Source: Candidatus Limnocylindrales bacterium (GTDB lineage Bacteria > Chloroflexota > Limnocylindria > Limnocylindrales > CSP1-4). From it: 64,000 bases of DNA. Below the pieces are notes generated by a model. That model was not told the DNA's origin and searched no databases. It saw only the letters and a program-made list of their open reading frames with translations. Positions 8,233 through 34,627 of the stretch are shown one piece after another (within the stretch, counting starts at the first letter, position 1; each line of letters starts with the position of its first letter). The stretch covers positions 15,012 through 79,011 of the forward strand of contig DASSMQ010000006.1 in assembly GCA_035688805.1 (NCBI GenBank). The letters are read 5' to 3'. Both the position numbers and the translations under genes were made by a program.

Positions 8233-10044
8233 TCAACCCTCGTCCATGCGCAACATCGCCAGGAAGGCCTCCTGCGGGATCTCGACCGACCCCACCCGCT
8301 TCATCCGCTGCTTCCCCTCTTTCTGCTTCTCGAGGAGCTTGCGCTTGCGGGTGATGTCGCCACCGTAACACTTGGCCAGCACGTTCTTGCGCATCGCGCG
8401 GACCGTTTCGCGGGCGATCACGTTGCTGCCGATCGCAGCCTGGATCGGGATCTCGAACATCTGGCGCGGGATCAGCTGCTTGAGTCGCTCGGCGAGCGCC
8501 CGGCCGGTCGACGGGGCGCGGTCACGGTGCACGATGATGCTGAGCGCGTCGACGGGTTCGCCGTTCACCAGGATGTCGACCTTGGCGAGCTCGGCCGGTC
8601 GATAGCCGAGCTCCTCGTAGTCCATCGACGCGTAGCCCTGGCTGCGACTCTTGAGCTGGTCGAAGTAGTCGACGATCAGCTCGGCCAGAGGCATCTCGAA
8701 ATGGAGCACGACGCGGGTAGGGTCGAGGTACTCCATGTCGATGAACTCCCCGCGCCGGTTGGTCGAGAGCTCCATCAGCGCGCCGATGTACTGGCTGGGA
8801 CTGACGACGCTGAGGCTGACCCACGGCTCATCGATGGACTCGATCTCGGACGGACCGGGTAGACGGGCCGGGTTATCGACTACCACCAGGCCCCGGCCGT
8901 GCTGGAGGTGGACGTGGTATTCGACCGACGGGGCCGAGGCGATGAGGTCGAGACCGAACTCGCGCTCGAGGCGTTCCTGGACGATCTCCATGTGGAGCAG
9001 CCCGAGGAACCCGCACCGGAACCCGAACCCGAGGGCCACCGAACTCTCCGGCTCGAACGTGAAGCTCGCATCGTTGAGGTGGAGCTTGTCGAGTGCCTCC
9101 CGCAATTCGGGGTAGTCCTCGCCGCTGACCGGGTAGATGCCGGCGAAGACGAGGCTCTTGGCGGCCTGGTAGCCGGGCAGTGGCTGGGCCGCCGGCCGTG
9201 CCTGGGTCGTGACCGTATCGCCGACCTGGGCCTCGCGCACGTTCTTGAGCCCCGTCGCGACGTAGCCGACCTCCCCGGCGGTCAGCTGGCGGACCGGGAC
9301 GAGCTGGGGTCGGAAGACGCCGAGCTCGAGGGGCTCGGCGACCGCGCCACTGGCCATCAACCGGATCGGATCGTTGGCACGCAGGGTGCCCTGGGCGAGC
9401 CGGACGTAGACGATCACGCCCTTGTAGGCGTCGTAGTGGCTGTCGAAGATCAGGCCCTGGACCGGTGCCGCCGGGTCACCCTTCGGGGCGGGGATGCGCT
9501 CGACGACCGCCTCGAGGATGTCGATGACGCCGGTGCCGTCCTTGGCGCTCGCCAGGATGACCTCCTCGCGCGGGATGGCCAGGACGGTCTCCAGCTCCTC
9601 GATGATGGTGTCGGGATCGGCCGACGGCAGGTCGATCTTGTTGAGCACCGGGATCAGCGTGAGGTTCTCGCGCAGGGCCAGGTGGACGTTGGCCAGGGTC
9701 TGGGCCTCGATGCCCTGGGTCGCGTCGACGACGAGGATAGCGCCCTCACACGCCTGCAGGCTGTGGCTGACCTCGTAGGCGAAGTCGACGTGTCCCGGGG
9801 TGTCGATCAGGTTGAGGCCGTAAGTAAGACCGTCGCGGGCGGTGTACTCGAGGCGCACGGCGCGGGCCTTGATCGTGATGCCCTTCTCGCGCTCGAGATC
9901 CATCGAGTCGAGCACTTGGCTGGTCATCTGCCGGGCGTCGATCGTGTGGGTCAGCTCGAGCAACCGGTCCGCCAGCGTCGACTTGCCGTGATCGATGTGG
10001 GCGATGATCGAGAAGTTGCGCAGGCGCTCCTGGGGGATGGTCAC
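8233..10044 (-). CDS. lepA: translation elongation factor 4 (LepA)
   Basis: [20 protein letters not shown] GTPase G1 motif and full-length LepA homology; 603 aa; GTG start. Confidence 0.95.
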
Positions 10045-10324
10045 GAGGCGGGAGTGTAGCGGGCGCGGAGCCGCCGACTACTCGTGTGCCTACGGCAGGA
10101 CCGCCATCGTCGCTTCGCGTGGAGTCGTGAGAGGACTGCCATCCGGCATTGGTCGGCAGGTATCTTCAGGCCTGGTTTCCGTAGGACGTACCCAAGAGCG
10201 ATCTGACGTGGAGCGACCATTCCGAGTCACGCGGCGAATACACCCAAAGAAGCTCGTTCCTGGCTCCACGCCACCGGCGACCTGACTCTCGCGGCGCCGC
10301 TTCGCAGGGGCAACCCCCCGAGGA

Positions 10325-11077
10325 TCAGGCCGGTTCGGCCGCGGGCTCCGATCCGGGTCCGATCGATGCCCCGAGCCAGATGGTCCAGAGCGGCACGAGC
10401 ACGCCCGACACGATCACGAGAAGGTACAGGCCGAGGTCGCCACCGACCTGCAGCACGCCCACGAGGACCGTCGCGACCAGCCCGATCGCCGTCACCCACG
10501 AGACGATGCTCCATGCCGCCGGCAGCCGTGCCCGGAAGGCGGCGTCGACGGCGAGGATGCCGATCGCGGCCAGGATGGCGGCTGCGTTGACCAGCCAGTT
10601 CTTCGCGCCCTCCAGCAGCATCTGTCCCCAGATCTGGCTGACGATCTCCGTCTCCTTGAAGCCGCAGTCGCAGTACGCGAGGTCGATCGTCACCTGCGTC
10701 GCGCCGATCAGGATGAGCTGGCCGACGGCGCCGAGGATGCCCCCGACCGCCAGACCCACGGCGATCGCGGTGCGCCTCGTATCCGTGGGTGCAAGCAGAG
10801 CGGCGAGCGCAACGCCAAGACCGGCGAGGGCGACGAAGCCGATGCCGAAGCTCATGTTGTTCAGGAAGAAGATCGGCCAGATCGCGACACGGTAGCCCTG
10901 CACCGCGAGGCGCTGCTCCACCATGTTCGACGCGCCCGTGTCAGGCGGCGTCGCGTAGAGGTTCAGGATGTCCACGAGTTGGAACGCCGTCCCGATCAGG
11001 AACAGGACACCTACGGCCCAGGCCAGCCACCGAACTGCCCTCATCTGCACGTCGCCCTCCTCGAAGTGTCCGGACAC
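10325..11077 (-). CDS. hypothetical multi-pass membrane protein
   Basis: 6-7 predicted TM helices; no recognised motif. Confidence 0.4.
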   Translation of the reverse strand: MSGHFEEGDVQMRAVRWLAWAVGVLFLIGTAFQLVDILNLYATPPDTGASNMVEQRLAVQGYRVAIWPIFFLNNMSFGIGFVALAGLGVALAALLAPTDTRRTAIAVGLAVGGILGAVGQLILIGATQVTIDLAYCDCGFKETEIVSQIWGQMLLEGAKNWLVNAAAILAAIGILAVDAAFRARLPAAWSIVSWVTAIGLVATVLVGVLQVGGDLGLYLLVIVSGVLVPLWTIWLGASIGPGSEPAAEPA

Positions 11078-11196
11078 CGGCGATTGTAGGGGCGCGTCGG
11101 CTGCATCTCGCCACCATCTGCTACCATCCGTCGTCGCGCCGCCGCCCTCGCGCCGCGCGAACCCGATCAGATCCCACGCACGTGAGGTTCTCCCCC

Positions 11197-11847
11197 TTGG
11201 CCAAGACGCCCCGCACCTGGACCGGCGCGCGGACCCCGTCGGGACTCAAGCGCGTCCGGCAGGCGAATAGCCGCCACGAGGTGCTTGGTCCGCGTCGGAG
11301 TGCCGCCAAGACCTTCGTCGCCAAGGCCGTCAGCGCCGCCGCCTCCACCGATGCCGAGGCAGCCACCGCCGCACTGACCGAGGCGCTGTCGGCGCTCGAT
11401 CGAGCCGCCAAGGCGGGCGCGATCCACCCGAACGCGGCCGCCCGACGCAAGTCGCGGCTGACCCGCAAGGTCAACGCCGCGGTCGGTGGGACGGGCGTCC
11501 AGGCCGGCGGCCGGGTCGCCAAGCAGACCGGCAAGGCCGCCGCGGCCAAGGCCGCCAAGGCGCGCATCGCCGCCGGCAAGTCGACCAAGGCCAAGGGCGC
11601 TCAGACGGCCGCCGGCAAGGCGCGCGCCGCGCTGTCGAAGACGGCTCGGGCAGAAGCCGCCGCGGCGAAGGCCGCCCAGGCGTCCTCAGCAGAGACCCCC
11701 GCGCCCGCGGCCGTGAAGCCGGCGCGGCCGGCCGCGAAGGCCACGGCCACCAAGAAGCCGACCACCGCCAAGGCAGGCGCCACGAAGGCGGCGTCGAGGT
11801 CGACGGCGACGAAGTCCGCGACCGCTCGGAAGACCACCAAGAGCTAA
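11197..11847 (+). CDS. rpsT: 30S ribosomal protein S20 with ~120-aa Ala/Lys/Pro-rich C-terminal extension
   Basis: S20 core RVRQANSRHEVLGPRRSAAKTFVAKA...LDRAAKAGAIHPNAAARRKSRLTRKVNA. TTG start with GAGG 10 nt upstream. Then AKAAKARIAAGKSTKAKG...TKKPTTAKAG..., a histone H1-like tail. Confidence 0.8.
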   Translation: MAKTPRTWTGARTPSGLKRVRQANSRHEVLGPRRSAAKTFVAKAVSAAASTDAEAATAALTEALSALDRAAKAGAIHPNAAARRKSRLTRKVNAAVGGTGVQAGGRVAKQTGKAAAAKAAKARIAAGKSTKAKGAQTAAGKARAALSKTARAEAAAAKAAQASSAETPAPAAVKPARPAAKATATKKPTTAKAGATKAASRSTATKSATARKTTKS

Positions 11848-11890
11848 GTGGACGGGGTCCGGCGACGGGCCCCTCTCGGTACCGTCGACC

Positions 11891-11910
11891 GCCCCGGCAC
11901 CAGCCGGGGC
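11891..11910. terminator. GC hairpin (GCCCCGGC-acca-GCCGGGGC) between convergent rpsT and lipoprotein genes
   Basis: 7-8 bp perfect stem read directly, 44 bp after the rpsT stop. Confidence 0.5.
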
Positions 11911-11926
11911 GTCGTCATGCCGCCCC

Positions 11927-12729
11927 CTACTGGAAGCACCACCCCCGCGCTTCGAGGGCTTTTCGCTCGAGATCGGACAGGGCGATCACGAACGCCGTCT
12001 GGTCGAATGCCTTGTACAGCTCGAAGCGCCGTCCCGGGCTGGCGATGAGGGCGTCGATCGGGGCGAGGATGCCGGGATCGATCCAATCCTCGAGGTAGGC
12101 CGGGTGGAGCTCGTGGACGCCGTCCGCGAGGCTGAACCTGACCGTGACCGGACCCTTCGACCCAGCCCATGTCTCGGTGATGTCACCCGGATCGAACGCC
12201 CCGCCCGAGATCTCGCTCCAGGCGGCCAGGGTCTGGACGTACACCTCGTTCTCCGGGGCGACGTCCGCCTCGAGGTCCTGCCACCAGACGCGGGCGTGGT
12301 CCTGCTGAGCGACGGCGAGGTCGAGCATGGCGGGCGGGAGCTCGACGGACCCGCTCGGGTCGCTCGCGGCAGTCTGGCCGGACCCATCTCCGGCGCTGCC
12401 CCAGGTCTCGGCGATACCGTCCTTGACGTAGGCCGTCAGGTCGGCCTCCGAGAGCTCGGCCTGATCCGCGAAAAGGCCGATCGCCCGCAGGTCGGCTACG
12501 CGTTGGGCGATCGTGGCGTCGGTCGCCGGCGGCAGCGGGTCGGCGTCGCAGGCCGCGCTGGCGACATTCGTCGGTCGGGGCACGTCGACACGGGTCGAGC
12601 CGAGCCCGGGCACGTCGACGAACTCACCCGAGCCGACGCCGCCCGTCGGCGGAGCCGCACACGCGGCGGCGAGGACGCCGGCGACGAGGCTGGCCGCGAT
12701 CGCCGCGACCGCCGCGCGGAGACGCCCGC

Positions 12730-12733
<4 letters not shown>
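11927..12733 (-). CDS. hypothetical lipoprotein
   Basis: Internal Met followed by the signal peptide RLRAAVAAIAASLVAGVLAAAC (lipobox LAAAC). The ATG overlaps the stop of the upstream gene. Confidence 0.45.
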
Positions 12734-17032
<4,299 letters not shown>

Positions 17033-22968: not shown

Positions 22969-25900
22969 CTAGCCGAGCCGACGCATGCCGGCATGCCCGA
23001 GCTGTCGGACCCCACCAGGTTGCTCCGGCCCGCCGACCGTGGCGACCACCTCGGGGAGTGGCTTGATGTCGCGAGCGACGAGGTTGACGACCTTGCCTTC
23101 GCGCTGGAGCTCACCATCGACCAGCAGCAGGGCGTGCCGGCGGACCACGCCGCGTAACCGTTCCCAGACGTTCGGCCAGAGGGTCACATTCACCATCCCG
23201 GTCTCGTCCTCGAGCGCCAGGAAGACCGTGCCCTTGGCGGTCATCGGATGCTGCCGGGTGACGACTAGTCCTCCCACCCGGACCCGGCCCGGCCGCCGAT
23301 CGGCCAGTGACGCATTCGGCACCGCCCCGAGTCGATCGAGCGCGGTCCGGAAGAGCCCGACCACCTGCCGGCGGGCATCGACCCCCAGTACCGCATAGGC
23401 GTCACCGACCCGCTCGGACTCGGTGATCGCCGGCAGGTCGGGCGCATCGGTCGCCGGGAGTCGGAGATCCAGCGGCCGGCCCGCTGCCGCGTGCCGCTTG
23501 CCGGCGGCCCGCCCGAGGGCACGGACCGTCCGGCCATCCATCCGACCGCGTGACGCCCCGGCCACCTCGCGCAACTGCCAGAGCAGCTCCCGCCGTGGCC
23601 GGTCCAACGAGTCCATCGCGCCGCTGCGGATGAGTCGCTCGAGCACCTCCTCGGGCAGGCCCGTCCGTTCGACCACGTCGACCAGGTTCCGATACGGGCC
23701 GCGGGCCCGCTCGGCATCGAGCGCTGCCTGGTGCTGCTCCCCGATGCCCTTCACCAGGCCGAGCCCGAGCCGGACCGCCCAGCCGGCGGTCACCGCCGGC
23801 GTCCAGCGCTCCCGCGACGACGCGGAGGGAACGATGCACGCGGAGGAGACGACCGGGTCGGGCTGTGCGTCTGGGCCGATCCACTCGGTCGTCGTCGCGT
23901 AGCACGACGCGTTGACGTCCACGGGCAGCACCGCTACCCCGTGGCGCTTCGTGTCGTTGACCAGGACCTCGACCGGATAGAAGCCCATCGGCTGGGCATT
24001 GATCAGCCCGACCAGGAACTGGGCGGGGTAGAACAGCTTGAGGAAGGCCGACTCGTAGGCGGTCCGGGCGAAGGCCGCCGCGTGCGACTTGGCGAACCCG
24101 AAACTGGCGAACGCGGCGACCTGGCGAAACAGCTCCTCGGCGGTCTCGAGCTCGAGCCCGGGCTGGCGCAGCGCCCCGTCGACGAACCGGTGATGGAGCT
24201 TCTCCATCTCGCGCGATGAACGCCAGGTCCCCATCGCTCGCCGGAAGCCATCCGATTCGGCCGGGCTGAACCCGGCCACCTCGATGGCGATGCGCATGAC
24301 CTGCTCCTGGTAGAGGATCACTCCGAGCGTGTCCTTCAGCACGGGCTCCAGGCTGGGGTGCAGGTAGACGACCGGCTCGAGGCCCTGCTTGCGGCGCAGG
24401 TACGGGTGGACGGCGTTGCCCTGGATCGGCCCGGGTCGGATGATCGCCACCTCGACCACCAGGTCATCGAGCCTGCCCGGCCGCGACTTGGGGAGCGTCT
24501 GCATCTGTGCCCGGCTCTCGACCTGGAAGACGCCCACCGTGTCGGCCGCCTGGAGCATCGCGAAGACCTCGGGCACGTCCTCGGGCAGGCGGTCGAGATC
24601 GAGGCAGACCGCACAGTCATGCTCGATGAGCTGCAGGGTCTCGTCCATCGCGGCGAGCATCCCGAGACCGAGCAGGTCGAGCTTGATGAGCTTGAGCGTC
24701 TCGACGTCGCGCTTGTCGAACTGGACGACCACCCGGTCGGGCATCGTGGCCCGCTCGAGCGGGGCGAGGTCGATGAGGGGGGCGGCCGTGACGAGCATGC
24801 CGCCGCTATGGATGCTGAGGTGACGCGGGAACCCGTCGATCCGGGCGCAGAACTCGAGCCAGCGCTCCCAGTGGGAGAGGCCGACCGTCGAGCCGCCACG
24901 GGCCTGCGGCGGTGGCTCGGGCACGATGCGGGCGACCGAGCTCGCATTCGCTGGGGTCGGCGGGGGATCCCACATGATCGGCCTGCCGAGACGATCGGTC
25001 TTCCGTGGTGGCGGCAGGGTCATGCCGCTCTCCGGATCGACCGGGACGGGTCCCTGGCCCAGCGGGGGTGTGCCATAGCCCGTCCCCCGCCCGGCTCGCA
25101 GCCAGGCCACGCTCGCCGGCGTGTCGCCCGGTCCGCCCTCGTCGTCGGACGGCCCGCGGCGGATCGTCGTGACCGGTGCGAGCGGGTCCTCGCGGAACGC
25201 GGCATCACCACGCTCCGTGGCATTGCCCTCCTCGGTGGTCGATTCCCGGAGCCAGGCGAACGGACGCGGCGCGTCCGGGTCCACCGGGGTCCGCGGCTGC
25301 TTCCACGGTGGCACCTTCCCGATCAGGGGCAGCCGCTTGTTCAACTGGCCCATGCCATCGACCAGCCCGTGCGCCTCCGCCTGTTCGGCCGCGCCGGCCT
25401 CCGGTGGCAGGCCCTCCCCGGATCGTCGGAAGAACTCGGCGAACCCGCCGTCGGCCTCGAGGTCGCGCCGGACCATGACCGAGTCGTACGTCTCGAGCGC
25501 CTTCGCGACCCGATCTACCAGGGGCCGCGGGAAGCCGAGCGCATAGCCCACCTCGCGCACCGCCGAACGCGCCCGGTAGGTGACAAGGTTGCAGACCATC
25601 CCCGTGTGCTCCGGCCCGTAGCGTCGGTAGATGTACTGGATGACCTCCTCGCGCCGAGCCGAGCTGAAGTCGATGTCGACGTCCGGGTACGTCGTCCGAC
25701 CCGGATTGATGAACCGCTCGAACAGGAGGTCGTGGGCGATCGGCTCGACGCGGCTGATCCCGAGGGTGTACGACACGATCGAACTGGTCGCGCTCCCCCG
25801 ACCCTGGGCCGGGATGCCCTGCTCCCTCGCGAAGCGCATCAGGTCCCAGCAGATGAGGAAGAACTCGGCAAGGCCGGCTCGCTCGATGACGTCGAGTTCA

Positions 25901-27072
25901 TGGGCGAGCCGCTTGACCACCGCCGAGGTCAACGGGTGATAGCGCCGCCGTGCGCCGGTCCAGCACAGCTCGGAGAGATGAGAGAACGGTGTCTCACCCT
26001 CAGGGACCGGGAAGCCCGGGAACCGGTACTGCTCGAACCCGAGATCGACCGAGCACGATGCCGCGATCTCGACCGAGTTGGCGATCCCCTCGCGCCAGGC
26101 ACGGGCAGCACTCGACTCGAGCGAGTCGCCGAGCGTTGCCAGCGCCTCGCCCGATTTCAGGAAGGACTCGCCGTCCGGCCGACGCAGATCGGCCAGCGTG
26201 TCGAGCGTCCGGCCGTGTCGGATGGCGGTCAGCACGTCGTGGAACTCGCGGTCGTCGGCCGTCGCGTAATGGACGTCGTTGGTGACCACGACGGGCAGGC
26301 CGAGCTCGATCGCCAGCGCGGCCGATTCGGCGACCAGCCAGTCGTCGTCGGGCAGGAGATGGTGCGACAGCTCGATGAAGAACCCGCTCGTCGACGGGCC
26401 ATCGCCGCGGCCGAAGAGCGTCGCATAGCGCTCGGCGACAGCGCGCGCGCCGGCCCGATCGCCGACCCGCAGGCGTCGCGCGATCTCCCCCTCGCGACAA
26501 GCCGACAGCGCGACCAGGCCATCGTGATCAGCCTCGAGCAGGTCGTGCGTGATGCGCGGCATCGCCTTGGTCCCGGCCAGGTTGGCGTGCGACACCAGGC
26601 GACTCAGGCTGCGCCAGCCGGCAGGGGTCCGGGCGAGGAGCACGAGGTGTGGGCCGCGGGCCCGGTCCCCGACCCCGCGCACATCTTCCTTGACCAGGTC
26701 GCGGTGACCGGGCAGACGGGCGCGATCGGGTCGCGGCCGCACGGGCCGGCCGTCGGTGATCGTCGGCTCGACGGCCGGAGACTCGCCCTGCCGGCGGCGT
26801 GGCCGGCGGCGAGACGGGACCACCACCCGGCCGGGATCGGGCACGGCCGTATCGATCAGGTCGATCTCGGTCCCGACGACGCCAGGGAGGCCAGCCTCCT
26901 CGGCGGCACTCATGAACCGGACGGCGCCGTACAGCCCGTTCCGATCCGTCGCAGCGAGGGCGGTCAGCCCCAGGGCGACGGCCCGCTCGACCAGGTCGTC
27001 CGGCGGCGAGGCGCCATCGAGGAACGAGAAGTTGGTGTGGGCGTGGAGTTCGGCGTATGGGATGGTCGCCAC
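22969..27072 (-). CDS. dnaE2: error-prone DNA polymerase DnaE2 (ImuC) with two low-complexity insertions
   Basis: DnaE2-type N-terminus YAELHAHTNFSFLDGASPPDDL; PHP, palm (RHLSIHSGGML) and OB domains. An SOS box lies 43 bp upstream, and imuA-imuB are nearby. 1367 aa, against ~1090 typical. Confidence 0.85.
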   Translation of the reverse strand: MATIPYAELHAHTNFSFLDGASPPDDLVERAVALGLTALAATDRNGLYGAVRFMSAAEEAGLPGVVGTEIDLIDTAVPDPGRVVVPSRRRPRRRQGESPAVEPTITDGRPVRPRPDRARLPGHRDLVKEDVRGVGDRARGPHLVLLARTPAGWRSLSRLVSHANLAGTKAMPRITHDLLEADHDGLVALSACREGEIARRLRVGDRAGARAVAERYATLFGRGDGPSTSGFFIELSHHLLPDDDWLVAESAALAIELGLPVVVTNDVHYATADDREFHDVLTAIRHGRTLDTLADLRRPDGESFLKSGEALATLGDSLESSAARAWREGIANSVEIAASCSVDLGFEQYRFPGFPVPEGETPFSHLSELCWTGARRRYHPLTSAVVKRLAHELDVIERAGLAEFFLICWDLMRFAREQGIPAQGRGSATSSIVSYTLGISRVEPIAHDLLFERFINPGRTTYPDVDIDFSSARREEVIQYIYRRYGPEHTGMVCNLVTYRARSAVREVGYALGFPRPLVDRVAKALETYDSVMVRRDLEADGGFAEFFRRSGEGLPPEAGAAEQAEAHGLVDGMGQLNKRLPLIGKVPPWKQPRTPVDPDAPRPFAWLRESTTEEGNATERGDAAFREDPLAPVTTIRRGPSDDEGGPGDTPASVAWLRAGRGTGYGTPPLGQGPVPVDPESGMTLPPPRKTDRLGRPIMWDPPPTPANASSVARIVPEPPPQARGGSTVGLSHWERWLEFCARIDGFPRHLSIHSGGMLVTAAPLIDLAPLERATMPDRVVVQFDKRDVETLKLIKLDLLGLGMLAAMDETLQLIEHDCAVCLDLDRLPEDVPEVFAMLQAADTVGVFQVESRAQMQTLPKSRPGRLDDLVVEVAIIRPGPIQGNAVHPYLRRKQGLEPVVYLHPSLEPVLKDTLGVILYQEQVMRIAIEVAGFSPAESDGFRRAMGTWRSSREMEKLHHRFVDGALRQPGLELETAEELFRQVAAFASFGFAKSHAAAFARTAYESAFLKLFYPAQFLVGLINAQPMGFYPVEVLVNDTKRHGVAVLPVDVNASCYATTTEWIGPDAQPDPVVSSACIVPSASSRERWTPAVTAGWAVRLGLGLVKGIGEQHQAALDAERARGPYRNLVDVVERTGLPEEVLERLIRSGAMDSLDRPRRELLWQLREVAGASRGRMDGRTVRALGRAAGKRHAAAGRPLDLRLPATDAPDLPAITESERVGDAYAVLGVDARRQVVGLFRTALDRLGAVPNASLADRRPGRVRVGGLVVTRQHPMTAKGTVFLALEDETGMVNVTLWPNVWERLRGVVRRHALLLVDGELQREGKVVNLVARDIKPLPEVVATVGGPEQPGGVRQLGHAGMRRLG

Positions 27073-27114
27073 GGCTGCTCCGGTCGGTGGCCGGTCGGAT
27101 CGGGGCGGACAGTA

Positions 27115-27130
27115 TAGAACGCATGTTCTA
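27115..27130. promoter_or_regulatory. LexA-type SOS box TAGAACgcatGTTCTA (perfect palindrome, GAAC-N4-GTTC core)
   Basis: Read directly. It sits in the divergent region 43 bp from the dnaE2 start and 57 bp from the GH18 gene start. Confidence 0.75.
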
Positions 27131-27186
27131 TCAGGGGAAGCCCACCCATCCGCAGGACCAATGAGGGGCTGGACGACCGCAACTCG

Positions 27187-28725
27187 ATGGGCTTACCTGA
27201 CCGGGTGCGATCGACCCGTCACCGTCGCCATGCCGCCTGGTCTCGCCTCGTCCTCACCCTGACCGCCGCGGTCACGCTCTTGGCCGGGATCGCGGGCCCG
27301 ATCCCCGCTGTCCGGGCCGCGGACATCCGACCGCGGATCACCGGGATCGCGCCCCTGACCCACGAGGTCTACGGGTATCTCCCCTACTGGCGCCTGGATG
27401 CCGGCACGGTCGACCGGCTGCACTACGACCTCGTGTCGACCATCGCGTTCTTCGGCCTCGGGATCCTCGGGACGGGGGCGATCGACACGTCCTGGATCGG
27501 CTATCGGGCGTACATCGGCGACGACGCGGCGGCGGTCACCAATGCCGCCCACGACCACGGGGTTCGGGTCGTTCCCACGTTCCAGCTGTTCGATTCGGCG
27601 ACCGGCGCGCCCAAGATGACGGCGTTCCTCGGCAGTCGGTCGGCGCAGGACCGGTTCATCGGCGAGGCGCTCGACCTCATGGCCGCACGGAGCGCCGACG
27701 GTGCCGGGCTCGACTTCGAACCGGTCGGCGCCCTGGCCGCGCGCGCCTCGGAGTACGTCGCCTTCGTGGCCCGGTTCCGGGGCGCGATGAAGGCCCGCTT
27801 CCCGGGAGCCACGCTGGTGACCGCGACCTCGGCTGGGGCGACCCAGGAGCTCGTCCAGGGTGTCGCCCCATACGTCGATCATCAGATGGTGATGACCTAC
27901 AACTACCGCTCCTCCGGCTCGACGATCGCCGGCGCGGTTGCCCCGCTCGATCACGCGACGAGGAACGTCAAGAAGCACATCACCCGGATGCTGGGCTGGG
28001 TGCCGGCACGCTCCTTGCTGCTCGGCGAGCCCTATTACGGATACGACTGGCCGGTCACCAGCGCCATCCCGAACGCGACGGTCCAGTCGGACAAGTCGAC
28101 CTATGGCCCCGTCCGGAGCGTCACCTACGCCAGTGCCCGCGATTTCCTGGCCGCGCACCCGAGTGTCGTCCGGCGCTACGACTCTCTCGAGGGGAGCGCC
28201 TTCTACTGGTACTACGACAGCACGAAGCGGACCTACCGCGAAGCCTATTTCGACGATGAGCGGAGCCTCGCCGCGAAGGACGACTACGCGATCGCCACCG
28301 GCCTTGGCGGGATCGGCATCTGGACGCTCGACAACGACCGCGGCTACCGGCAGCTGTGGGACGTCCTCCGTTCGAAGTTCTACGCCCCGGTCCTGAGCAT
28401 GTCGGTCCGGGCGTCGGTCAGCGACCTGACCCGGGTATCCGGGGTCGTGTCCGTGGTCGTCCATGCCGGAGCCACGAATACGGGGACCGTGCCGCTGACC
28501 GGATCGCTGCGCTGGGCGATCCGCGACCCAGGTGGCCGAGTCGTGGCCAGCGGTCATTGGCCGACCACCGTCGTCTACCCTGGCCGGAGCACGAGTCACG
28601 CCGTCCGTGCCGCCCTCGGGCTGGCCACCTCCCTGCCAGCCGGCACCTACCACCTTCGGGTGCGGTTCGTGACGTCGACGAAGGCCTACGGGCCGCCGGA
28701 CGTGGCCTTCCGCCAGCCGTACTGA
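27187..28725 (+). CDS. secreted glycoside hydrolase family 18 (chitinase-like) protein
   Basis: Signal peptide ending AVRA-AD. GH18 catalytic-region motif DGAGLDFEP (DxxDxDxE with the middle Asp replaced by Gly). 512 aa. Confidence 0.65.
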   Translation: MGLPDRVRSTRHRRHAAWSRLVLTLTAAVTLLAGIAGPIPAVRAADIRPRITGIAPLTHEVYGYLPYWRLDAGTVDRLHYDLVSTIAFFGLGILGTGAIDTSWIGYRAYIGDDAAAVTNAAHDHGVRVVPTFQLFDSATGAPKMTAFLGSRSAQDRFIGEALDLMAARSADGAGLDFEPVGALAARASEYVAFVARFRGAMKARFPGATLVTATSAGATQELVQGVAPYVDHQMVMTYNYRSSGSTIAGAVAPLDHATRNVKKHITRMLGWVPARSLLLGEPYYGYDWPVTSAIPNATVQSDKSTYGPVRSVTYASARDFLAAHPSVVRRYDSLEGSAFYWYYDSTKRTYREAYFDDERSLAAKDDYAIATGLGGIGIWTLDNDRGYRQLWDVLRSKFYAPVLSMSVRASVSDLTRVSGVVSVVVHAGATNTGTVPLTGSLRWAIRDPGGRVVASGHWPTTVVYPGRSTSHAVRAALGLATSLPAGTYHLRVRFVTSTKAYGPPDVAFRQPY

Positions 28726-28800
28726 CGGGCCCTCCCACGACGGGACCATCGATCCCGCCCACCCGTGCAACAACTCGCCGCGCTCCGGCGTCTCTTGGCC

Positions 28801-28944
28801 ATGCACGCTCCCAGCCACCTCGATCGCCCGCTTCGACCGGCCGCTGCGGCCGCGTTCCGGACGGCCCTCGCGGTGGTGGTGGCGTCGCTGCTGATCCTCG
28901 TCGTCCTCCCCGCGATGCTCGCGGTCCAGGCGACGACGATCTAG
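28801..28944 (+). CDS. small hydrophobic peptide, 47 aa, single TM (not in ORF track)
   Basis: ATG...TAG translates MHAPSHLDRPLRPAAAAAFRTALAVVVASLLILVVLPAMLAVQATTI. Confidence 0.3.
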   Translation: MHAPSHLDRPLRPAAAAAFRTALAVVVASLLILVVLPAMLAVQATTI

Positions 28945-29050
28945 CACCAACCGACGTCTCGGCGCCTGGGGGCTCGGGACGATCGTCGGCGATCGACTGC
29001 GATAGCCGATCCGCCGACCTGCCGGATCGCTGGTGAGCGAGGATCCGGCC

Positions 29051-29085
29051 ACAGGACCCCGTCGCTGGGGGCGACGGGGTCCTGT
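29051..29085 (+). terminator. 15-bp perfect-stem hairpin (ACAGGACCCCGTCGC-tgggg-GCGACGGGGTCCTGT), followed by 14-bp palindrome GGGCCGATCGGCCC at 29093..29106
   Basis: Read directly. It lies between the first small peptide and the lipoprotein gene. Confidence 0.55.
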
Positions 29086-29130
29086 CACGTCCGGGGGCCG
29101 ATCGGCCCGCAGCCCGTAGACTCATCCGAC

Positions 29131-29670
29131 ATGACATCGCGAACCCGCCGCCTCCTGATGACGATCGTGACGATGGCACTTCTGGGCGGGTGTGGCGGCA
29201 CGTCGCCCGGCAGCCCCGGACCGTCGACTGCCGCGACGGCGACCGCGGCCGCTTCGACGCCGGCCGGGGGACCGAGCACCAGCGCATCGGCCGAACCGAC
29301 CGCCACGACCCCGCGTGCCGGTCCCGCGGTGGGTCAGACCGACACCGACTGGGGCCGGATCTGGGACGCCGTCCCGACCGATTTCCCGCGGTTCCCAGGA
29401 TCGAAGGTCGCCGATGACACGGGCGAGGCGCCGGTCAGCGCCCGGTTCGCGGTCGACGGCGGCGATCCCAAGGCGATGGCCGCCTGGATGCAGTCGGCGA
29501 TGGAGACGGCCGCGTACAGTACGGAGGGCCTCAACGGGCCCCTCGAGGATGGCAGCATGGTCCTCGAATCGGTCGGGGATGGCGGCTGTCGCATCCAGAC
29601 GACGATCGCCCCGCTCGGCGGGACGGTCTTCGTGACGATCCGGTACGGCGCCGCCTGCCCGCTGCACTGA
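29131..29670 (+). CDS. hypothetical lipoprotein
   Basis: Signal with lipobox MALLGGC; 179 aa; no recognised domain. Confidence 0.55.
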   Translation: MTSRTRRLLMTIVTMALLGGCGGTSPGSPGPSTAATATAAASTPAGGPSTSASAEPTATTPRAGPAVGQTDTDWGRIWDAVPTDFPRFPGSKVADDTGEAPVSARFAVDGGDPKAMAAWMQSAMETAAYSTEGLNGPLEDGSMVLESVGDGGCRIQTTIAPLGGTVFVTIRYGAACPLH

Positions 29671-29691
29671 CCACAGGAGCATCGATCGCGC

Positions 29692-29799
29692 ATGCAGCCC
29701 CGCTCCACCGACTTCCTTGGTGCCGCGCTCCTGGCCATCGTCCTGATCGGGCTGGTGGTGATCCTGTTCGTCGGCAATATCCCGGCGGCCACCGCCTGA
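29692..29799 (+). CDS. small hydrophobic peptide, 35 aa, single TM (not in ORF track)
   Basis: MQPRSTDFLGAALLAIVLIGLVVILFVGNIPAATA. AGGAG sits 12 nt upstream, and the ATG is 21 bp after the lipoprotein stop. Confidence 0.4.
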   Translation: MQPRSTDFLGAALLAIVLIGLVVILFVGNIPAATA

Positions 29800-29904
29800 A
29801 TCCGGTAGCTGCGCGCGGTTCTCGTCGCGCGTTGTGCTCGCCCCGCCGCTATGCTGTGGCTGGATCGACCGGGACTTCGGTCCGGACAGGGGGAACGCCG
29901 CTCC

Positions 29905-30009
29905 ATGCAATCGGCACGACCGCGTGATCTGGGTGTCCTCGTCCTCGCGATGGGGGTCCTGCTCGTTCTGTTCGTGGTGAGCCTGACGCTCGGGTCGCCG
30001 TTGCGCTGA
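29905..30009 (+). CDS. small hydrophobic peptide, 34 aa, single TM, paralog-like of the preceding one (not in ORF track)
   Basis: MQSARPRDLGVLVLAMGVLLVLFVVSLTLGSPLR shares the MQ..R.D(F/L)LG..LLA..L.GL.V.LFV pattern with the peptide at 29692..29799. Confidence 0.4.
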   Translation: MQSARPRDLGVLVLAMGVLLVLFVVSLTLGSPLR

Positions 30010-30028
30010 GTCCGGTCCGGCACGGACG

Positions 30029-30286
30029 TCAGTCGTACAGACGTTCGATATGCCAGGTGCCGGCGATCCGGTCGAGATAGACGAGCGCGAGCCAGCGTTC
30101 GCCCACGACCTTCGCGTACTCGCGGGCGATCGGATCGCGCCACCACGACTCATCGACCCGCCAGCGGTTGCACACCTCGACCGCCTCGCGACGCCCGTTC
30201 CAGCGGATGGCGATGAGCCGTCCATCGCCATCGAGCTCGACGTCGATGCGCGGATGCTCGCGCAGGAGGCGGGTCATGCCGGCCAT
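30029..30286 (-). CDS. hypothetical small protein (about 82-85 aa) translationally coupled to imuB stop
   Basis: M(AGM)TRLLREHPRIDVELDGDGRLIAIRWNGRREAVEVCNRWRVDESWWRDPIAREYAKVVGERWLALVYLDRIAGTWHIERLYD. An alternative ATG at 30275..30277 overlaps the imuB TGA (ATGA). The part of the track ORF upstream of this overlaps imuB. Confidence 0.5.
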   Translation of the reverse strand: MAGMTRLLREHPRIDVELDGDGRLIAIRWNGRREAVEVCNRWRVDESWWRDPIAREYAKVVGERWLALVYLDRIAGTWHIERLYD

Positions 30287-31548
30287 CCGTCGCGCCCGTC
30301 GTCGGCGAGCCCGACTGAGCGCCACGCCCAGCGTGCTTCCGCCAGCGGCGCCTCCGGGTCGGTGATGGCGACCCGGCGGATGCGATCCTCCCCGTAGGTC
30401 AGCGCCAGCCTCGCCAGCTGCCACCCGAGTCGGGCCGTCCGGGCGGCCTGGGGCACGAACAACGGCAGTTGTTGGCCCGCCGCCGGGGTCGTGCCGCGCA
30501 GTTCCAGGTCGATCCGCTGGACCGCTGCCGGCGGCGGCTGGCGCTCGAGGCGCGCGAACAGCAGACGCTCGACGGCTTCGGGGTCCGCGGTGGGTTCCGG
30601 GAAGCGCTGCTCGACCTCCATCCGCGGCGACGTACCGACCGGCGCGAACGCAAGGTCCAGTTCCAGCGTCAGCACTGCCCGATCCGCGGCGAGCCCTCGA
30701 CCGGTGAGCTGGGCGGCCAGCGCCGCCACTAGGCGATGGAGGACGAACCGGAGCGGCTCGAGCTCCTCGACCGGGGGTTCGATGGGCAGGGCGAGGGCCA
30801 GGCGCTCGGTCGCGTGGCGAGCCCCGAACGGCTCGGTCTCCTCGCCTCGAGCACGAGCATGGAGCCGCGCGCCCTCCTCGCCGAACCGGGCGATCAGCGC
30901 GGATCGCGGGAGGACCGCCACCGCGCCGATCCGACGCAGTCCGAAGCGGGTCAGGCGTGCCCGGACATCGGGGTCGGTGGTGAGCAGCCCGGACGGACGG
31001 TCGGCCAGGAACGCCGCCTCACCCCCGGGTGGGACGATGATCGGACCGTCCGGGGTGGCGGCCAGCGCCGCGACCGAGGCGGCGAACCGGGTGCCGGCGA
31101 TCCCGGCGCGCGGTGACGGCTCCCCGGGGAGGGCGCCTCGCAGCGCCGCACCGGCCCGCTCGATCAGTCGGGGCTCGGCCCCCCACAGCGGCTCGAGCCC
31201 ATCGATCCCGACCTCGAAGAACCCGAATGAGGCCGCCGATGGGTCGCTGGTCCCGGCCAGGCTCGGGCTGGATCGCCCGAGCGCCTCGAACACGGCCTCG
31301 GCAGCTCCCCGATCCGCATCGGGATCGGGGTCGATGAAGGTCGCCTCAGGGACGAGTCGGTGGGCGCTCCCGAGCGGCATCCCGCGTCGGACGCCGAGCG
31401 CCCGAGCTGTCGGATCGGCGTCGAGGACCGGACCCGGATCCCAGGGTCGCCCGCCCAGCACGAGCGGGCCGGTCGGGAAGGGCTCGGAGCGTCGAGCCCG
31501 GGCCAGGTGGAGCGGCAGGTGCGGCACGAACAGGTGCAGACGTCGCAT
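30274..31548 (-). CDS. imuB: ImuB (Y-family polymerase-like, catalytically inactive DinB homolog)
   Basis: Internal Met MRRLHLFVPHLPLHLARAR...GVRRGMPLGSAHRLVP matches the ImuB/DinB N-terminus. The upstream 193 codons of the track ORF overlap imuA. Confidence 0.85.
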   Translation of the reverse strand: MRRLHLFVPHLPLHLARARRSEPFPTGPLVLGGRPWDPGPVLDADPTARALGVRRGMPLGSAHRLVPEATFIDPDPDADRGAAEAVFEALGRSSPSLAGTSDPSAASFGFFEVGIDGLEPLWGAEPRLIERAGAALRGALPGEPSPRAGIAGTRFAASVAALAATPDGPIIVPPGGEAAFLADRPSGLLTTDPDVRARLTRFGLRRIGAVAVLPRSALIARFGEEGARLHARARGEETEPFGARHATERLALALPIEPPVEELEPLRFVLHRLVAALAAQLTGRGLAADRAVLTLELDLAFAPVGTSPRMEVEQRFPEPTADPEAVERLLFARLERQPPPAAVQRIDLELRGTTPAAGQQLPLFVPQAARTARLGWQLARLALTYGEDRIRRVAITDPEAPLAEARWAWRSVGLADDGRDGWPA

Positions 31549-32719
31549 GGTCGGTCTCGCGATCGGGGGCCTCATGAACGGGGGCGTGGACGGGAGGCGG
31601 CGGAGCGGCCGACAGCCGGAGGTCGACCGGATCGGCCCAGCGGGTGGGTTCCTTGCTTCCCGCGTACGAGCTTGCAGGCACGGCAAGTACCACGGGCGAG
31701 GACCGCGTACGGGCCTCATCTCCGAGCGATCCCTTGCCTTCGGGGCAAGGAACGGCGGCGATGGCCCGGCTATCGGTCGACGGCACCTCATCACTTGCGA
31801 GGACCGCAAGTTCCACGACCATCTCGCCTGGCCGTGCAGCGGTACTTGCCGTGGAGGCAAGCCCTTGCGCCGCGGGCACGTCGAGCGCGTCGAACAGGAG
31901 GGCGTCGTCGGCGAGGCACGCATCGCGCTCACCGCCCTCCGCGTAGAGGATCCGCAGGATGGCTCGGCGTCCCGGCGGACCGTGGCGGTTGTGGGCGACG
32001 AGCGCCTCGGTCCGCTGCCCGACGACGTCCCGGCCGAGACGGACCCAGGACCGCCGAGCGAGCTCCAGCCGGATGCCGGTCGATTGGTCGACCGCGGTCG
32101 TGAGGCCACCGCCCGACCCGGGCGCATCGAGGATCAGGAGCAGCGTCTCCGCCCGCCGGGCGAGAGCGGCGAGTCGATGGAGGCGATCGGCGATCTTCGC
32201 CGGCGTGTCGGTCCTGGCCAGACGGCCACCGGGCAGGTCGATGACGAGCAGGTCGACCGAGCGGCCGGCCAGCAGGCTGCCGGCGATGCCCAGGCCCTCG
32301 TCCAGGCTGGCCGGGGTGATGACCACGAGCCATTCGAGCCGGATGCCGCGGCTGACGGCTTCGACCGGGTCGAAGCTGCGCGACAGGTCCAGCCACGCCA
32401 CGACCGAGCCCTGGGCCTGGGCCTCCGCGGCGACCCGCAGGCTGAGGGTCGTCCGCCCGCTCGAGCCTTCCCCCCGGATCGCGACGCTGGCCGAGGTCGG
32501 CAACCCGCCCGGTCCGAGGATCGCGTCGAGGGCGGCGAAGCCGGTGTGGATGATCCGGTCGGCGGGCCGTGGGTCGGCGGAGGGTGACGGTCCCGGCATC
32601 TCTGTGGGGACCGGTGCCGGAGCCAGGGCCAGGGCGCCGACCACGCTCGGAGCTGCAGCACCCCAGCGGGCCCGGAGGCCCGCGACGGCGGCATCCACAT
32701 CACCCCGACCGGTCGACAT
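31346..32719 (-). CDS. imuA: ImuA (RecA/SulA-like cell-division-inhibitor fold protein of the mutasome), unusually long
   Basis: IHTGFAALDAILGPGGLPTSASVAIRGEGSSGRTTLSLRVAAEAQAQG...LLVIDLPGG RecA-like core. An SOS box lies 14 bp upstream. The ORF runs 203 nt into imuB. Confidence 0.75.
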   Translation of the reverse strand: MSTGRGDVDAAVAGLRARWGAAAPSVVGALALAPAPVPTEMPGPSPSADPRPADRIIHTGFAALDAILGPGGLPTSASVAIRGEGSSGRTTLSLRVAAEAQAQGSVVAWLDLSRSFDPVEAVSRGIRLEWLVVITPASLDEGLGIAGSLLAGRSVDLLVIDLPGGRLARTDTPAKIADRLHRLAALARRAETLLLILDAPGSGGGLTTAVDQSTGIRLELARRSWVRLGRDVVGQRTEALVAHNRHGPPGRRAILRILYAEGGERDACLADDALLFDALDVPAAQGLASTASTAARPGEMVVELAVLASDEVPSTDSRAIAAVPCPEGKGSLGDEARTRSSPVVLAVPASSYAGSKEPTRWADPVDLRLSAAPPPPVHAPVHEAPDRETDHATSAPVRAAPAAPPGPGSTLRALPDRPARAGRATLGSGSGPRRRSDSSGARRPTRDAARERPPTRP

Positions 32720-32732
32720 CGGACGTCGATAG

Positions 32733-32748
32733 TAGAACAGATGTTCTA
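32733..32748. promoter_or_regulatory. LexA-type SOS box TAGAACagatGTTCTA (perfect palindrome)
   Basis: Read directly. It is 14 bp upstream of the imuA start and 60 bp upstream of the divergent response-regulator gene. Confidence 0.75.
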
Positions 32749-32807
32749 GTCAGGCAAGCCGTTTCCGTCACCCGATCGACACGAGCGATGGCTAGCCTCG
32801 GCCTACC

Positions 32808-33566
32808 ATGCTGCCGATGCCGACCTCGACCTCCGACCCCGCGGTCCCGACCGCGCCGATCCTCGTCGTCGACGACGACGCGAAGATCGTCCGGCTCGTG
32901 CGGACCTACCTCGAACGGGACGGGTTCTCGGTCGTGACCGCCGCCGACGGCCCGGCCGCGCTCGCCGCGATCGAGGCCCATGCGCCCGCCCTCGTCGTGC
33001 TGGACCTGATGCTCCCCGAACTGGACGGGCGGGCCGTCATCCGGGCCGTCCGCCGCGACGACGAGGCCGGCCGCACGCCGATCCTCGTCCTGTCCGCGCG
33101 TAGCTCGACCATCGACCGGATCGCCGGACTCGAGGATGGGGCCGACGACTACCTGCCCAAGCCGTTCTCACCCGCCGAGCTCGTGCTCCGGGTGAAGTCG
33201 ATCCTGCGCCGTGCGGCGCCGGCCGGGGCAGGCCTGGCGGATGCCCGACGACCATCGACTCCGCTGCTCCGCCACGCCGATCTCACCGTCGACCCGTCCC
33301 GCCACGAGGTCCGCCGCGGCGACGCGGCCATCGACCTCACCCGGGTCGAGTTCAAGCTGCTGTCGACGATCCTGGCGGCGGATGGCCGCGTCCTGTCGCG
33401 CGACCAGCTGCTCGACGCCGTGTACGGCCACGAGGCGGCCGACGTCCTCGACCGGACCATCGACGTGCATGTCCGCCGATTGCGCGACAAGCTCGACGAT
33501 GACCCGGAAGCGCCGCGCTATGTCCAGACCGTGCGCGGCATCGGGTATCGCGCCGCCCGGACGTGA
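32808..33566 (+). CDS. OmpR-family two-component response regulator
   Basis: ILVVDDDAKIVRL receiver domain with D...LDLMLPELDG, plus a winged-helix trans_reg_C (VQTVRGIGYR). Confidence 0.9.
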   Translation: MLPMPTSTSDPAVPTAPILVVDDDAKIVRLVRTYLERDGFSVVTAADGPAALAAIEAHAPALVVLDLMLPELDGRAVIRAVRRDDEAGRTPILVLSARSSTIDRIAGLEDGADDYLPKPFSPAELVLRVKSILRRAAPAGAGLADARRPSTPLLRHADLTVDPSRHEVRRGDAAIDLTRVEFKLLSTILAADGRVLSRDQLLDAVYGHEAADVLDRTIDVHVRRLRDKLDDDPEAPRYVQTVRGIGYRAART

Positions 33567-34627
33567 TCGGTCGAGGTATCGCCGCACGCATCGCCCTGGC
33601 GGCCATCGCGAGCGCCGCGGTCGGCCTGGTCATCCTCGCCATCGGTGTGGCCGTGGTCGGTGGCGGGGTCTTCACCGAGTTGATGATGAAGGCCGGCGAC
33701 TCGGCCGAGCACGCTCGACGGATGTACGACGACTCGGTGGTCACGGTCGTGGTCGCGGCCTCCGCCCTGGCCGTGCTGGCGAGCCTCGGTCTAGCCGTCG
33801 CCCTCGCCCGGATGCTGGCCCGGCCGCTCGACGAGATCAGTGGCGCCGCTCGACGGATCGCCGACGGTGACTACGCGGCCCGCGTCCCGCGCGAGGGGCC
33901 CGAGGAGCTGGCCAGCCTGGCCGACTCATTCAACCAGATGGCCGCTTCGCTCGAGCGTCAGGAGCAGATGCGGCGCGACTTCATCGCCAACGCAGCCCAT
34001 GAGCTACGGACGCCGTTGACCAATCTGCAGGGCTACCTCGAAGCGCTGCGCGACGGCGTCATCGTGGCCGATGCCGCGACCTACGAGTCGCTCCACGAGG
34101 AGGCCGATCGCCTCGTCCGCCTGTCGCGCTCGCTCGACGCGCTCGCGGAGGGCGACGCCGACACGAGCCCGGCGACACGCATCGAGCTCGATCTCGCGGC
34201 TGCGATCCGCTCAGCGATCGACCTCGCCGCGCCGGCGATCGAACGCGCCGGGCTGCGCCTGGAGACCGGCCTTCCCCCCTCGCTGCCGGCCCGGGCGGAT
34301 CCAGACCGGGTCGCCCAGGTCCTCGCCAACCTCCTCTCGAACGCCATCCGGTACACGGCACGCGGCGGCCTGGTCACGGTCCGCGCCGAACGGCGTCCAG
34401 CCGATGTCCTGGTCTCGGTGACGAATACCGGCGACTCGATCCCGGCCGACGACCTCGATCGGGTATTCGAGCGGTTCTACCGGGTCGAGAAGTCACGCGA
34501 TCGCGCTCGGGGAGGCGCCGGCATCGGGCTGGCCATCGTGAAGCAGCTGGTCGAATCGGGCGGCGGTCGAGTCGGCGCCGAATCGGCTGAAGGTCAGACG
34601 CGCTTCTGGTTCAGCATCCCGGCCTGA
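33563..34627 (+). CDS. sensor histidine kinase (HAMP-HisKA-HATPase)
   Basis: H-box AAHELRTPLTNLQGYLEAL; N/G boxes (LLSNAIRYT, GGAGIGLAIVKQLV); a GTGA overlap with the RR stop. Confidence 0.9.
   Translation: MIGRGIAARIALAAIASAAVGLVILAIGVAVVGGGVFTELMMKAGDSAEHARRMYDDSVVTVVVAASALAVLASLGLAVALARMLARPLDEISGAARRIADGDYAARVPREGPEELASLADSFNQMAASLERQEQMRRDFIANAAHELRTPLTNLQGYLEALRDGVIVADAATYESLHEEADRLVRLSRSLDALAEGDADTSPATRIELDLAAAIRSAIDLAAPAIERAGLRLETGLPPSLPARADPDRVAQVLANLLSNAIRYTARGGLVTVRAERRPADVLVSVTNTGDSIPADDLDRVFERFYRVEKSRDRARGGAGIGLAIVKQLVESGGGRVGAESAEGQTRFWFSIPA

Follow-up and report, generated by a model that had tools for sequence, protein, structure and literature searches.

Split mutasome cassettes, in which dnaE2 is separated from imuA′-imuB, are known from mycobacteria (PMC10421592). 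The window analysed here, a stretch of 64,000 nucleotides from contig DASSMQ010000006.1 of a Candidatus Limnocylindrales bacterium, resembles the mycobacterial and actinobacterial arrangement in that a RecA-like ImuA′, an inactive Y-family ImuB and the polymerase DnaE2 (ImuC) are encoded as two units carrying a LexA box each. Unlike in Actinobacteria, the two units are only 1–7 kb apart, conserved envelope genes and an RNA are placed between them, and a conserved open reading frame (ORF) of 82 amino acids, orf82, is coupled to imuB. The earlier note on this DNA had stressed that 2.8 kb on the opposite strand part imuB from dnaE2. This block is present, but its direct neighbour is orf82 and not imuB, and the separation of the two genes, although real, is not unusual in view of the split cassettes already described. 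All features which that note had read from the sequence were found again: the gene of a family 18 glycosidase (GH18), that of a lipoprotein, three very small membrane peptides, the hairpins and, near dnaE2, a LexA box.

Parts of the block resemble further described systems. MicA, RybB and MicL are small RNAs of Escherichia coli which depend on sigmaE, and the RNA found here shares with them a short, structured transcript with a probable terminator at its end, a promoter of the extracytoplasmic function (ECF) type (AAC/CGTC) and a setting among envelope genes; in contrast to them, it belongs to another phylum, shows no relation in sequence or structure and is part of a transcript that in many lineages would also encode a membrane peptide. 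TisB/IstR and DinQ/AgrB are SOS-induced type I toxin systems, and the likeness consists in a small hydrophobic peptide encoded near a LexA box. At the present locus, however, the peptide is preceded by a promoter of ECF type and the LexA box is that of dnaE2; there is no evident antisense RNA, and the peptides occur together with a lipoprotein.

We interpret the block as three separate envelope-related units which lie beside the split mutasome and are not co-controlled with it, the RNA unit being of ECF type; this is probably the correct account. The 2.8 kb would thus lie between two separately controlled SOS operons, and LexA would act on the flanking polymerase genes only. The first unit would consist of an exported GH18 protein with its own promoter. 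In the second, some signal from the envelope would activate an ECF sigma factor, and this factor would drive a short leaderless transcript that would encode a 47-amino-acid membrane peptide, followed by an RNA of about 160 nt with four hairpins which ends at a hairpin of 15 bp. This RNA domain would act as a small RNA via exposed invariant loops and, in this lineage, would double as an mRNA. The third unit would encode the lipoprotein, followed by two paralogous membrane peptides of 34–35 amino acids; GH18, lipoprotein and peptides 2 and 3 would be envelope proteins expressed on their own. The acting sigma factor, the inducing signal, the substrate of the enzyme and the targets of the RNA are supplied here by inference.

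Limnocylindria, a class of the Chloroflexota abundant in soil and freshwater, are represented in this study by metagenome-assembled genomes only. A GH18-anchored scan of species-representative genomes yielded 79 Limnocylindria-type loci (L001-L079), and the use of orf82 instead of GH18 as a second anchor added loci L080-L087. In addition, a DNA-pattern scan of metagenomes delivered 120 stretches to which a covariance model of the RNA was then applied. The anatomy of the locus, its conservation, the covariation, the promoter motifs and the separability of the units were read directly from these sequences.

The most constant part of the block is the unit formed by the ECF-type promoter and the RNA, and within it the RNA. 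About 150 nt after the stop codon of peptide 1 are conserved at the nucleotide level and fold as four hairpins; the whole structured RNA spans about 160 nt (28940..29098, plus strand), and of its loops GCCUGGGGGC and CUGGUGAGCG are invariant and GCGAUGG is nearly so. A structure of 41 pairs was tested on a MAFFT alignment of the RNA, which revealed 89.8% of cells paired compared to 34–43% with partners slid, double changes at 29 of the 41 pairs, and observed values that none of 500 shuffles reached. A covariance-model alignment of 44 RNA sequences, which is biased towards the structure as it was fitted to the model, showed 93% of cells paired and changes on both sides at 33 of 41 pairs. The occurrence of U-G pairs places the RNA on the plus strand, and the single-sequence fold has a free energy of -86.7 kcal/mol (z = -3.7). 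During this analysis, the first helix proposed by RNAalifold was replaced by a covarying CGUCUCG/CGGGACG helix, and a pairing of hairpin 2 with the start region of dnaE2, seen only in close relatives of the window, was judged to be chance.

The covariance model scored 141.8 bits in the window and 49–162 bits in 57 of the 79 GH18-anchored loci, and it also detected the RNA in L080 and L083/84. Among the 120 metagenome stretches, 46 show mutasome genes, and all of them are strong model matches (68–148 bits); the other 74 pattern matches were discarded as chance hits, as none of them fits the model. All 46 true copies reside in the slot between dnaE2 and imuB, with dnaE2 directly adjoining peptide 1 and the RNA in 30 loci and GH18 placed between in 10. 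A search of Rfam 15 over 26500-33000 returned no match at E <= 1, and for the RNA alone the best match lay on the wrong strand and reached 24 bits, below the gathering score of 58. With more than 100 examples, the element is by its covariation a well-supported new structured RNA family.

The strong hairpin pair pointed out previously was confirmed: a perfect 15-bp stem (29051-29065/29071-29085, plus strand), which is the fourth and terminal helix of the RNA, is followed by the palindrome GGGCCGATCGGCCC (29095-29108) between the RNA and the lipoprotein gene. Most of the palindrome lies beyond position 29098, where the conserved RNA model ends, and its sequence is not conserved; the flanks after the terminal hairpin likewise differ among relatives. 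The terminal hairpin is a probable terminator. A dispersed repeat of the repetitive extragenic palindromic (REP) type was considered for it and rejected, as there is one copy in the window and its position is conserved in relatives. The same hairpin is a hot spot for extra DNA, being split by an insertion in L003 (~11860-12830), L048 and L050; the DNA inserted in L003 matched no group II intron or other Rfam family. Cargo of 1–5 kb is found downstream of the RNA in L001, L008, L010, L029 and L075 (in L008 with an ORF of about 510 codons), and loci with cargo sometimes carry partial second copies of the hairpin that give weak model matches.

Upstream of peptide 1, the window carries the ECF-sigma-type promoter GCAACA-N15-GCGTCT (28767..28793, plus strand). 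Its consensus, CG[A/C]AACA-N14-GGCGTCT, was identified in 40 of 41 peptide-1 loci, mostly with 7 nt between motif and ATG. As the -10 element ends 7 nt before the ATG, a leaderless mRNA is implied for peptide 1. ECF sigma factors recognise AAC at -35 and CGTC at -10 (PMC5758882); with these elements and about 16–17 nt between AAC and CGTC, the motif has the make-up of a putative ECF-dependent promoter. The strict motif is also specific, since 48 of its 50 matches in 1.7 Mb of related DNA are this promoter. In loci that lack peptide 1, the same ECF-type promoter stands directly before the RNA, about 50 nt after the GH18 stop codon. We also considered an N-terminal extension of peptide 1 from GTG 28765 and rejected it, as conservation upstream is at the nucleotide level and the frame is interrupted by stops in L005, L015, L022 and L023; the upstream conservation is assigned to the ECF-type promoter.

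The comparison of imuB-dnaE2 spacers in relatives, which the earlier note had recommended, revealed a neighbourhood conserved across the class and not a recent insertion. The order dnaE2(-), GH18(+) and orf82-imuB-imuA′(-) is kept in 61 of the 79 GH18-anchored loci at dnaE2 identities down to 62%, and the same slot is present in the 46 metagenome loci, so that the block cannot be called inserted. G+C is about 71% in the region and flat at about 0.67–0.73, without a compositional break; on this ground and that of the class-wide synteny, a recent insertion or a mobile element was rejected. Distant GH18 paralogs (41–45% identity) occur elsewhere, outside the slot. As part of the account given above, the block is thus probably an old, class-wide cell-envelope gene neighbourhood of Limnocylindria.

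Within this neighbourhood, the stretch between GH18 and orf82 differs among loci, its size ranging from 232 bp to 7 kb. Presence was counted over 54 loci, where peptide 1 was found in 41, the peptide 3 family in 45 and the lipoprotein in 42, and none of them in 4. GH18 occurs without the peptides in L034, L040, L042 and L070, while the peptides occur without GH18 in L080, L083-87 and 30 metagenome loci, and the lineages L080-L087 have no GH18 but retain, in the stretch from dnaE2 to orf82, the genes of peptide 1, of peptides 2/3 and of the lipoprotein. As each occurs without the other, GH18 and the set of peptides and lipoprotein are separable. The RNA persists on either side of this division: L034, L040, L042 and L070 have it but lack peptide 1, lipoprotein and peptide 3, and L080, L083/84 and 30 metagenome loci have it but lack GH18. 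Peptide 1 was never found without the RNA, which outlives it in many lineages. In L051, a deeper-branching genome, up386, GH18, RNA and lipoprotein gene are contiguous (8525-12241), and neither dnaE2 or imuB nor a LexA box was found within 10 kb; the mutasome is either lost or located elsewhere in that genome. Because GH18, RNA and lipoprotein gene are kept in L051 under these circumstances, the link of the block to the SOS response looks positional.

The arrangement of the LexA boxes agrees with such a reading. GAAC-N4-GTTC is the LexA motif of Firmicutes and Actinobacteria, and variants have been reported in Chloroflexi (PMC4951493). In the 64 kb there are just two such sites, one per SOS operon: 27117-27128 with the core GAACGCATGTTC, within the box ATAGAAC-GCAT-GTTCTAT (27114..27131), and 32735-32746 upstream of imuA′; the extended form TAGAAC-N4-GTTCTA is common to both. 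The first box overlaps the -10 element of dnaE2 (TATACT, minus strand, 27116-27111). Exactly one perfect, dnaE2-proximal box is found in each GH18/dnaE2 spacer of the 61 syntenic loci (61/61), and its conserved flanks, cAGTATA or gATGATA, correspond to -10 hexamers TATACT or TATCAT on the dnaE2 strand. By the position of a box over the -10 region, dnaE2 and imuA′ qualify as putative members of the LexA regulon, and the GH18 and peptide genes, which have no box over their own promoter elements, do not. The mutasome is accordingly described as a split cassette of two units, dnaE2 and imuA′-imuB-orf82, each predicted to be controlled separately by LexA. The -35-like element of GH18 starts 41 nt past the first box, the centre of which lies about 82 nt upstream of GTG 27205, a position from which LexA would not be expected to block the GH18 promoter. 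From the ECF promoter the box is more than 1.6 kb away in the window and 13–91 nt away in GH18-less loci, and this variable distance speaks against a fixed joint architecture. The block had been placed under a damage-responsive promoter; this cannot be upheld, since the box overlaps the -10 element of dnaE2, and GH18 as well as the peptide 1/RNA unit have promoter-like elements of their own.

The GH18 gene (27187..28725, plus strand) encodes 512 amino acids, although the conserved start is more likely GTG 27205 according to an alignment of 20 loci of the window's clade upstream of GH18. The protein matches PF00704 at 80.4 bits (cut-off 29.6 bits). Its structure model, with a predicted local distance difference test (pLDDT) score of 82.9, comprises a triosephosphate isomerase (TIM) barrel at residues ~58–400 and a C-terminal beta-sandwich at residues 405–510, and Foldseek comparison with GH18 structures gave E-values of 1e-17 to 1e-21, as expected for a member of the family. 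A charged stretch followed by a hydrophobic one at the N-terminus is a predicted signal/anchor, by which the protein would be exported. The catalytic motif reads D171-G-A-G174-L-D176-F-E178-P, and neither D176 nor E178 varies among 22 homologs. The replacement of the middle Asp by Gly, noticed before, is indeed seen at position 174, but it is no degeneracy: the middle Asp position of DxxDxDxE is G or N throughout this GH18 clade and is also without Asp in YdhD (GGVTIDFE) and 4wiw (DGVVIDFE). As these proteins share a non-Asp residue there, the apparently degenerate motif is a trait of the YdhD/SleL-like subgroup and not a sign of decay.

SleL/YaaH are spore cortex enzymes and ChiW is a cell-surface chitinase. 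By sequence and fold, the nearest solved relatives are Bacillus subtilis YdhD (3cz8), a Desulfitobacterium GH18 protein (4wiw), SleL/YaaH (4s3j/4s3k) and ChiW. With Bacillus YaaH(SleL)/YdhD and 4wiw the window protein shares the reduced motif ..G-x-x-[ILV]-D-F-E, in which the Asp-x-Glu pair is kept. It differs from SleL/YaaH in that LysM domains and a sporulation context are absent and an N-terminal signal/anchor and a C-terminal beta-sandwich are present instead; as the cortex-lytic enzymes combine two LysM domains with GH18 and no LysM match was obtained, only the catalytic domain is related to theirs. Peptidoglycan fragments are the substrate of SleL, an N-acetylglucosaminidase (PMC10653849), and the window protein would most likely trim peptidoglycan or another wall glycan containing N-acetylglucosamine. 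Invariant columns in the alignment of the 20 upstream regions mark a promoter-like block (27155..27198, plus strand). The consensus is GGGACCAAcGG.cGGcTGGACA, 17 nt, TT..CT, 6 nt and the start [A/G]TGCGA, and the window reads GGACCAA..GG.TGGACG (27170-27175), 17 nt, TTACCT (27193-27198), 6 nt and GTG 27205. In L051, a perfect TTGACA -35 element is found upstream of GH18 (TTGACA-N15-TTGGGT-N5-ATG) and a LexA box is missing.

The three small peptides, all single-pass membrane proteins encoded on the plus strand, are genuine genes, as had been proposed. Each has one stretch with a mean Kyte-Doolittle value of 2.9–3.2 over 19 amino acids. Peptide 1 (47 amino acids, 28801..28944), recognised by homologs, codon-position diversity and hydropathy, has a basic N-terminus and a transmembrane segment at residues 24–42, and homologs were found in 41 of 54 loci. 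Peptide 2 (35 amino acids, 29692..29799) and peptide 3 (34 amino acids, 29905..30009) are paralogs; the latter consists of MQxxRPRDxG and one transmembrane segment, and its length and its ATG/GTG/TTG start are kept in an alignment of 39 orthologs. The distribution of nucleotide diversity over the three codon positions is of the coding type: peptide 3 shows 0.33/0.15/0.49, at a ratio of nonsynonymous to synonymous substitution rates (dN/dS) of about 0.31, and peptide 1 shows 0.37/0.29/0.51, at a dN/dS of about 0.48. None of the peptides matched Pfam, NCBIfam, PHROG or PADLOC.

The lipoprotein (179 amino acids, 29131..29670, plus strand) contains the lipobox ..MALLGG-C21 (L-A-A-C-G in the consensus of the family), and all 28 aligned sequences have the Cys, as expected for a lipoprotein. 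A low-complexity linker rich in Ser, Pro and Ala leads to an alpha/beta domain of about 110 amino acids with two invariant Cys, modelled at a pLDDT above 90. That the lipoprotein has no known domain was borne out by the absence of a Pfam or NCBIfam match; a search of solved structures gave no significant hit, the best being Flpp3 with E = 4e-3. A -10-like element TAGACT (29117-29122) lies 8 nt before the ATG, and across the loci the hexamers TAGACT, TAGGAT or TACGAT are located 6–8 nt before the lipoprotein start. In GH18, peptide 1 and the lipoprotein gene alike, -10-like elements end 6–8 nt before the start, and Shine-Dalgarno sites are absent (27193-27207, 28788-28803, 29117-29133). As this holds for three consecutive genes, it points to a frequent use of leaderless mRNAs in this lineage. 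Shine-Dalgarno-like sites (AGGAG 12 nt and GGGGGA 11 nt upstream, respectively) precede peptides 2 and 3, which are internal to the operon.

Several observations weigh against three independent units beside the mutasome. The RNA is tightly linked to dnaE2 and imuB in every RNA-anchored locus, which could mean a functional tie. A few loci without GH18 have just 13–23 nt between the end of the LexA box and the -35 element of the ECF promoter, so that interference by LexA is possible there. Neither a regular-expression search of the window nor a motif search of the flanks found the gene of an ECF sigma factor. Furthermore, the -10-like element of GH18 (TTnnCT) is atypical, the terminal hairpin has no U-tract, which renders termination uncertain, and promoters, transcript ends and the inducing signal are read from motifs.

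Among the other explanations, the one raised in the earlier note holds that hydrolase and holin-like or TisB-like peptides are expressed from the divergent promoter region of dnaE2 and serve, under LexA control, as a lysis or toxin module induced by damage. A perfect LexA box in the divergent spacer of 114 bp, an adjacency to the mutasome that is conserved in more than 100 loci, the small, hydrophobic and single-pass nature of the peptides and the short distance of 13–23 nt between box and peptide 1 promoter in some GH18-less loci would fit. We nevertheless consider such a module highly unlikely, as the box overlaps the dnaE2 -10 element, is centred about 82 nt before the GH18 start and, in the window, is separated from peptide 1 by more than 1.6 kb, its distance to the ECF promoter is not fixed, and L051 keeps GH18, RNA and lipoprotein gene without LexA box or mutasome. 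A holin/endolysin-like arrangement is further contradicted by a GH18 protein with an export signal of its own, by the independent loss of GH18 and peptides, and by the lack of any PHROG holin or PADLOC defence family match; the flanks are chromosomal housekeeping genes, and the peptides are under purifying selection together with the lipoprotein, with peptides 2 and 3 having Shine-Dalgarno sites in an operon. The idea of an envelope-stress system fared better, since a peptide 1 gene behind an ECF-type promoter lends it a plausible flavour, though not that of damage-induced lysis. A type I toxin-antitoxin-like pair of peptide 1 and RNA, in which a membrane-toxic peptide would have its mRNA held in check by its own structured RNA or by an antisense RNA, would fit in that the peptide is short and hydrophobic and its transcript stands alone, is highly structured and ends in a perfectly palindromic hairpin. 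We judge it very unlikely, because the U-G pairs assign the structure to the sense strand, no antisense promoter was recognised at the locus, the RNA outlives the peptide while the peptide never occurs without the RNA, the locus is single-copy and syntenic rather than mobile or multi-copy, and PADLOC gave no match.

It is unlikely, too, that the RNA acts in cis as the leader of the lipoprotein/peptide operon, as a riboswitch or attenuator with a terminal hairpin that controls read-through, even though a strong hairpin lies 45 nt before the lipoprotein ATG, the lipoprotein gene follows the RNA in most loci, and the multi-helix architecture with invariant loops is aptamer-like. The RNA is kept where no co-oriented gene follows and the next gene is the convergent orf82 (L034, L040, L042, L070), and where 1–5 kb of other DNA precede the lipoprotein gene (L001, L008, L010, L029); moreover, the lipoprotein start has its own -10-like hexamers, and no Rfam riboswitch matched. 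The RNA could instead serve the mutasome. That the ECF-driven RNA, with or without the 47-amino-acid peptide, is a dedicated regulator tying envelope stress to the SOS mutasome would explain why it is wedged between dnaE2 and imuA′-imuB-orf82 across the class, but we regard this as highly improbable. A specific form, in which envelope stress is connected to error-prone repair by pairing of the invariant loop GGGGGC with GCCCCC in the dnaE2 leader (27073-27112, minus strand; at the same place in L001-L079), is given a very small chance. Every true RNA copy found sits between dnaE2 and imuB, and 29 of 62 loci have GCCCCC downstream of the dnaE2 -10 element at a constant spacing, compared to 1.5% of random 41-nt windows. 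Yet GCCCCC is absent in lineages with a near-leaderless dnaE2, where the RNA loop is unchanged, L084 has the leader motif without the G5 loop, and L051 keeps the RNA with neither dnaE2 nor imuB nearby; six G:C pairs are weak evidence at about 71% G+C, and as the loop never varies, no covariation signal is possible.

GH18 and the split cassette are ordinary; new are the RNA family, two families of small membrane proteins and the orf82 protein. The idea of an SOS lysis cassette is removed as unsupported. As Limnocylindria are known here only from metagenome-assembled genomes, almost nothing has been known about regulation in this class, and the locus provides a first regulatory map with a LexA box consensus, an ECF-type promoter consensus and widespread leaderless starts. 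It also adds candidate new genes, namely the two small membrane-protein families, the lipoprotein family and a possible extra mutasome protein. If the linkage between RNA and mutasome is functional, it would amount to a novel form of cross-talk by which envelope stress and induced mutagenesis are connected.

The flanking mutasome genes read on the minus strand. DnaE2 (22969..27072), which reads away from the block, is 62–84% identical to the products of same-position genes in 61 loci, and PHP/DNA_pol3_alpha domains are annotated on its homologs. With 1367 amino acids it is unusually long (relatives 1314–1504), and the extra length is a low-complexity insert rich in Pro, Gly and Arg in the middle of the protein. 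On the other side, orf82 (30029..30277) is followed upstream by imuB (about 30274..31548; IMS and IMS_C domains) and imuA′ (31346..32719; RecA-like domain match). The ATG of orf82 overlaps the imuB stop codon as ATGA, by which the ORF is predicted to be translationally coupled to imuB. Its product is 73–91% identical across all related loci, is represented by 565 protein clusters and has no relative in Pfam, NCBIfam or PDB; it is a candidate for a fourth, lineage-specific component of the mutasome. As the second LexA box is only about 15 nt from the imuA′ ATG (window 32720-32807), imuA′ is probably leaderless. On the other side of the imuA′ spacer, and divergent from it, are the genes of a histidine kinase and an OmpR-type response regulator (32808..34627), which are syntenic in the closer relatives. 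Between peptide 3 and orf82, where the window has 20 nt, about 15 loci carry some 1.1 kb of extra DNA; in the one locus inspected (L001, 13651-14754), this DNA comprises, by eye, an ORF for a TetR-type-looking regulator of 201 amino acids and a hydrophobic ORF of 141 amino acids.

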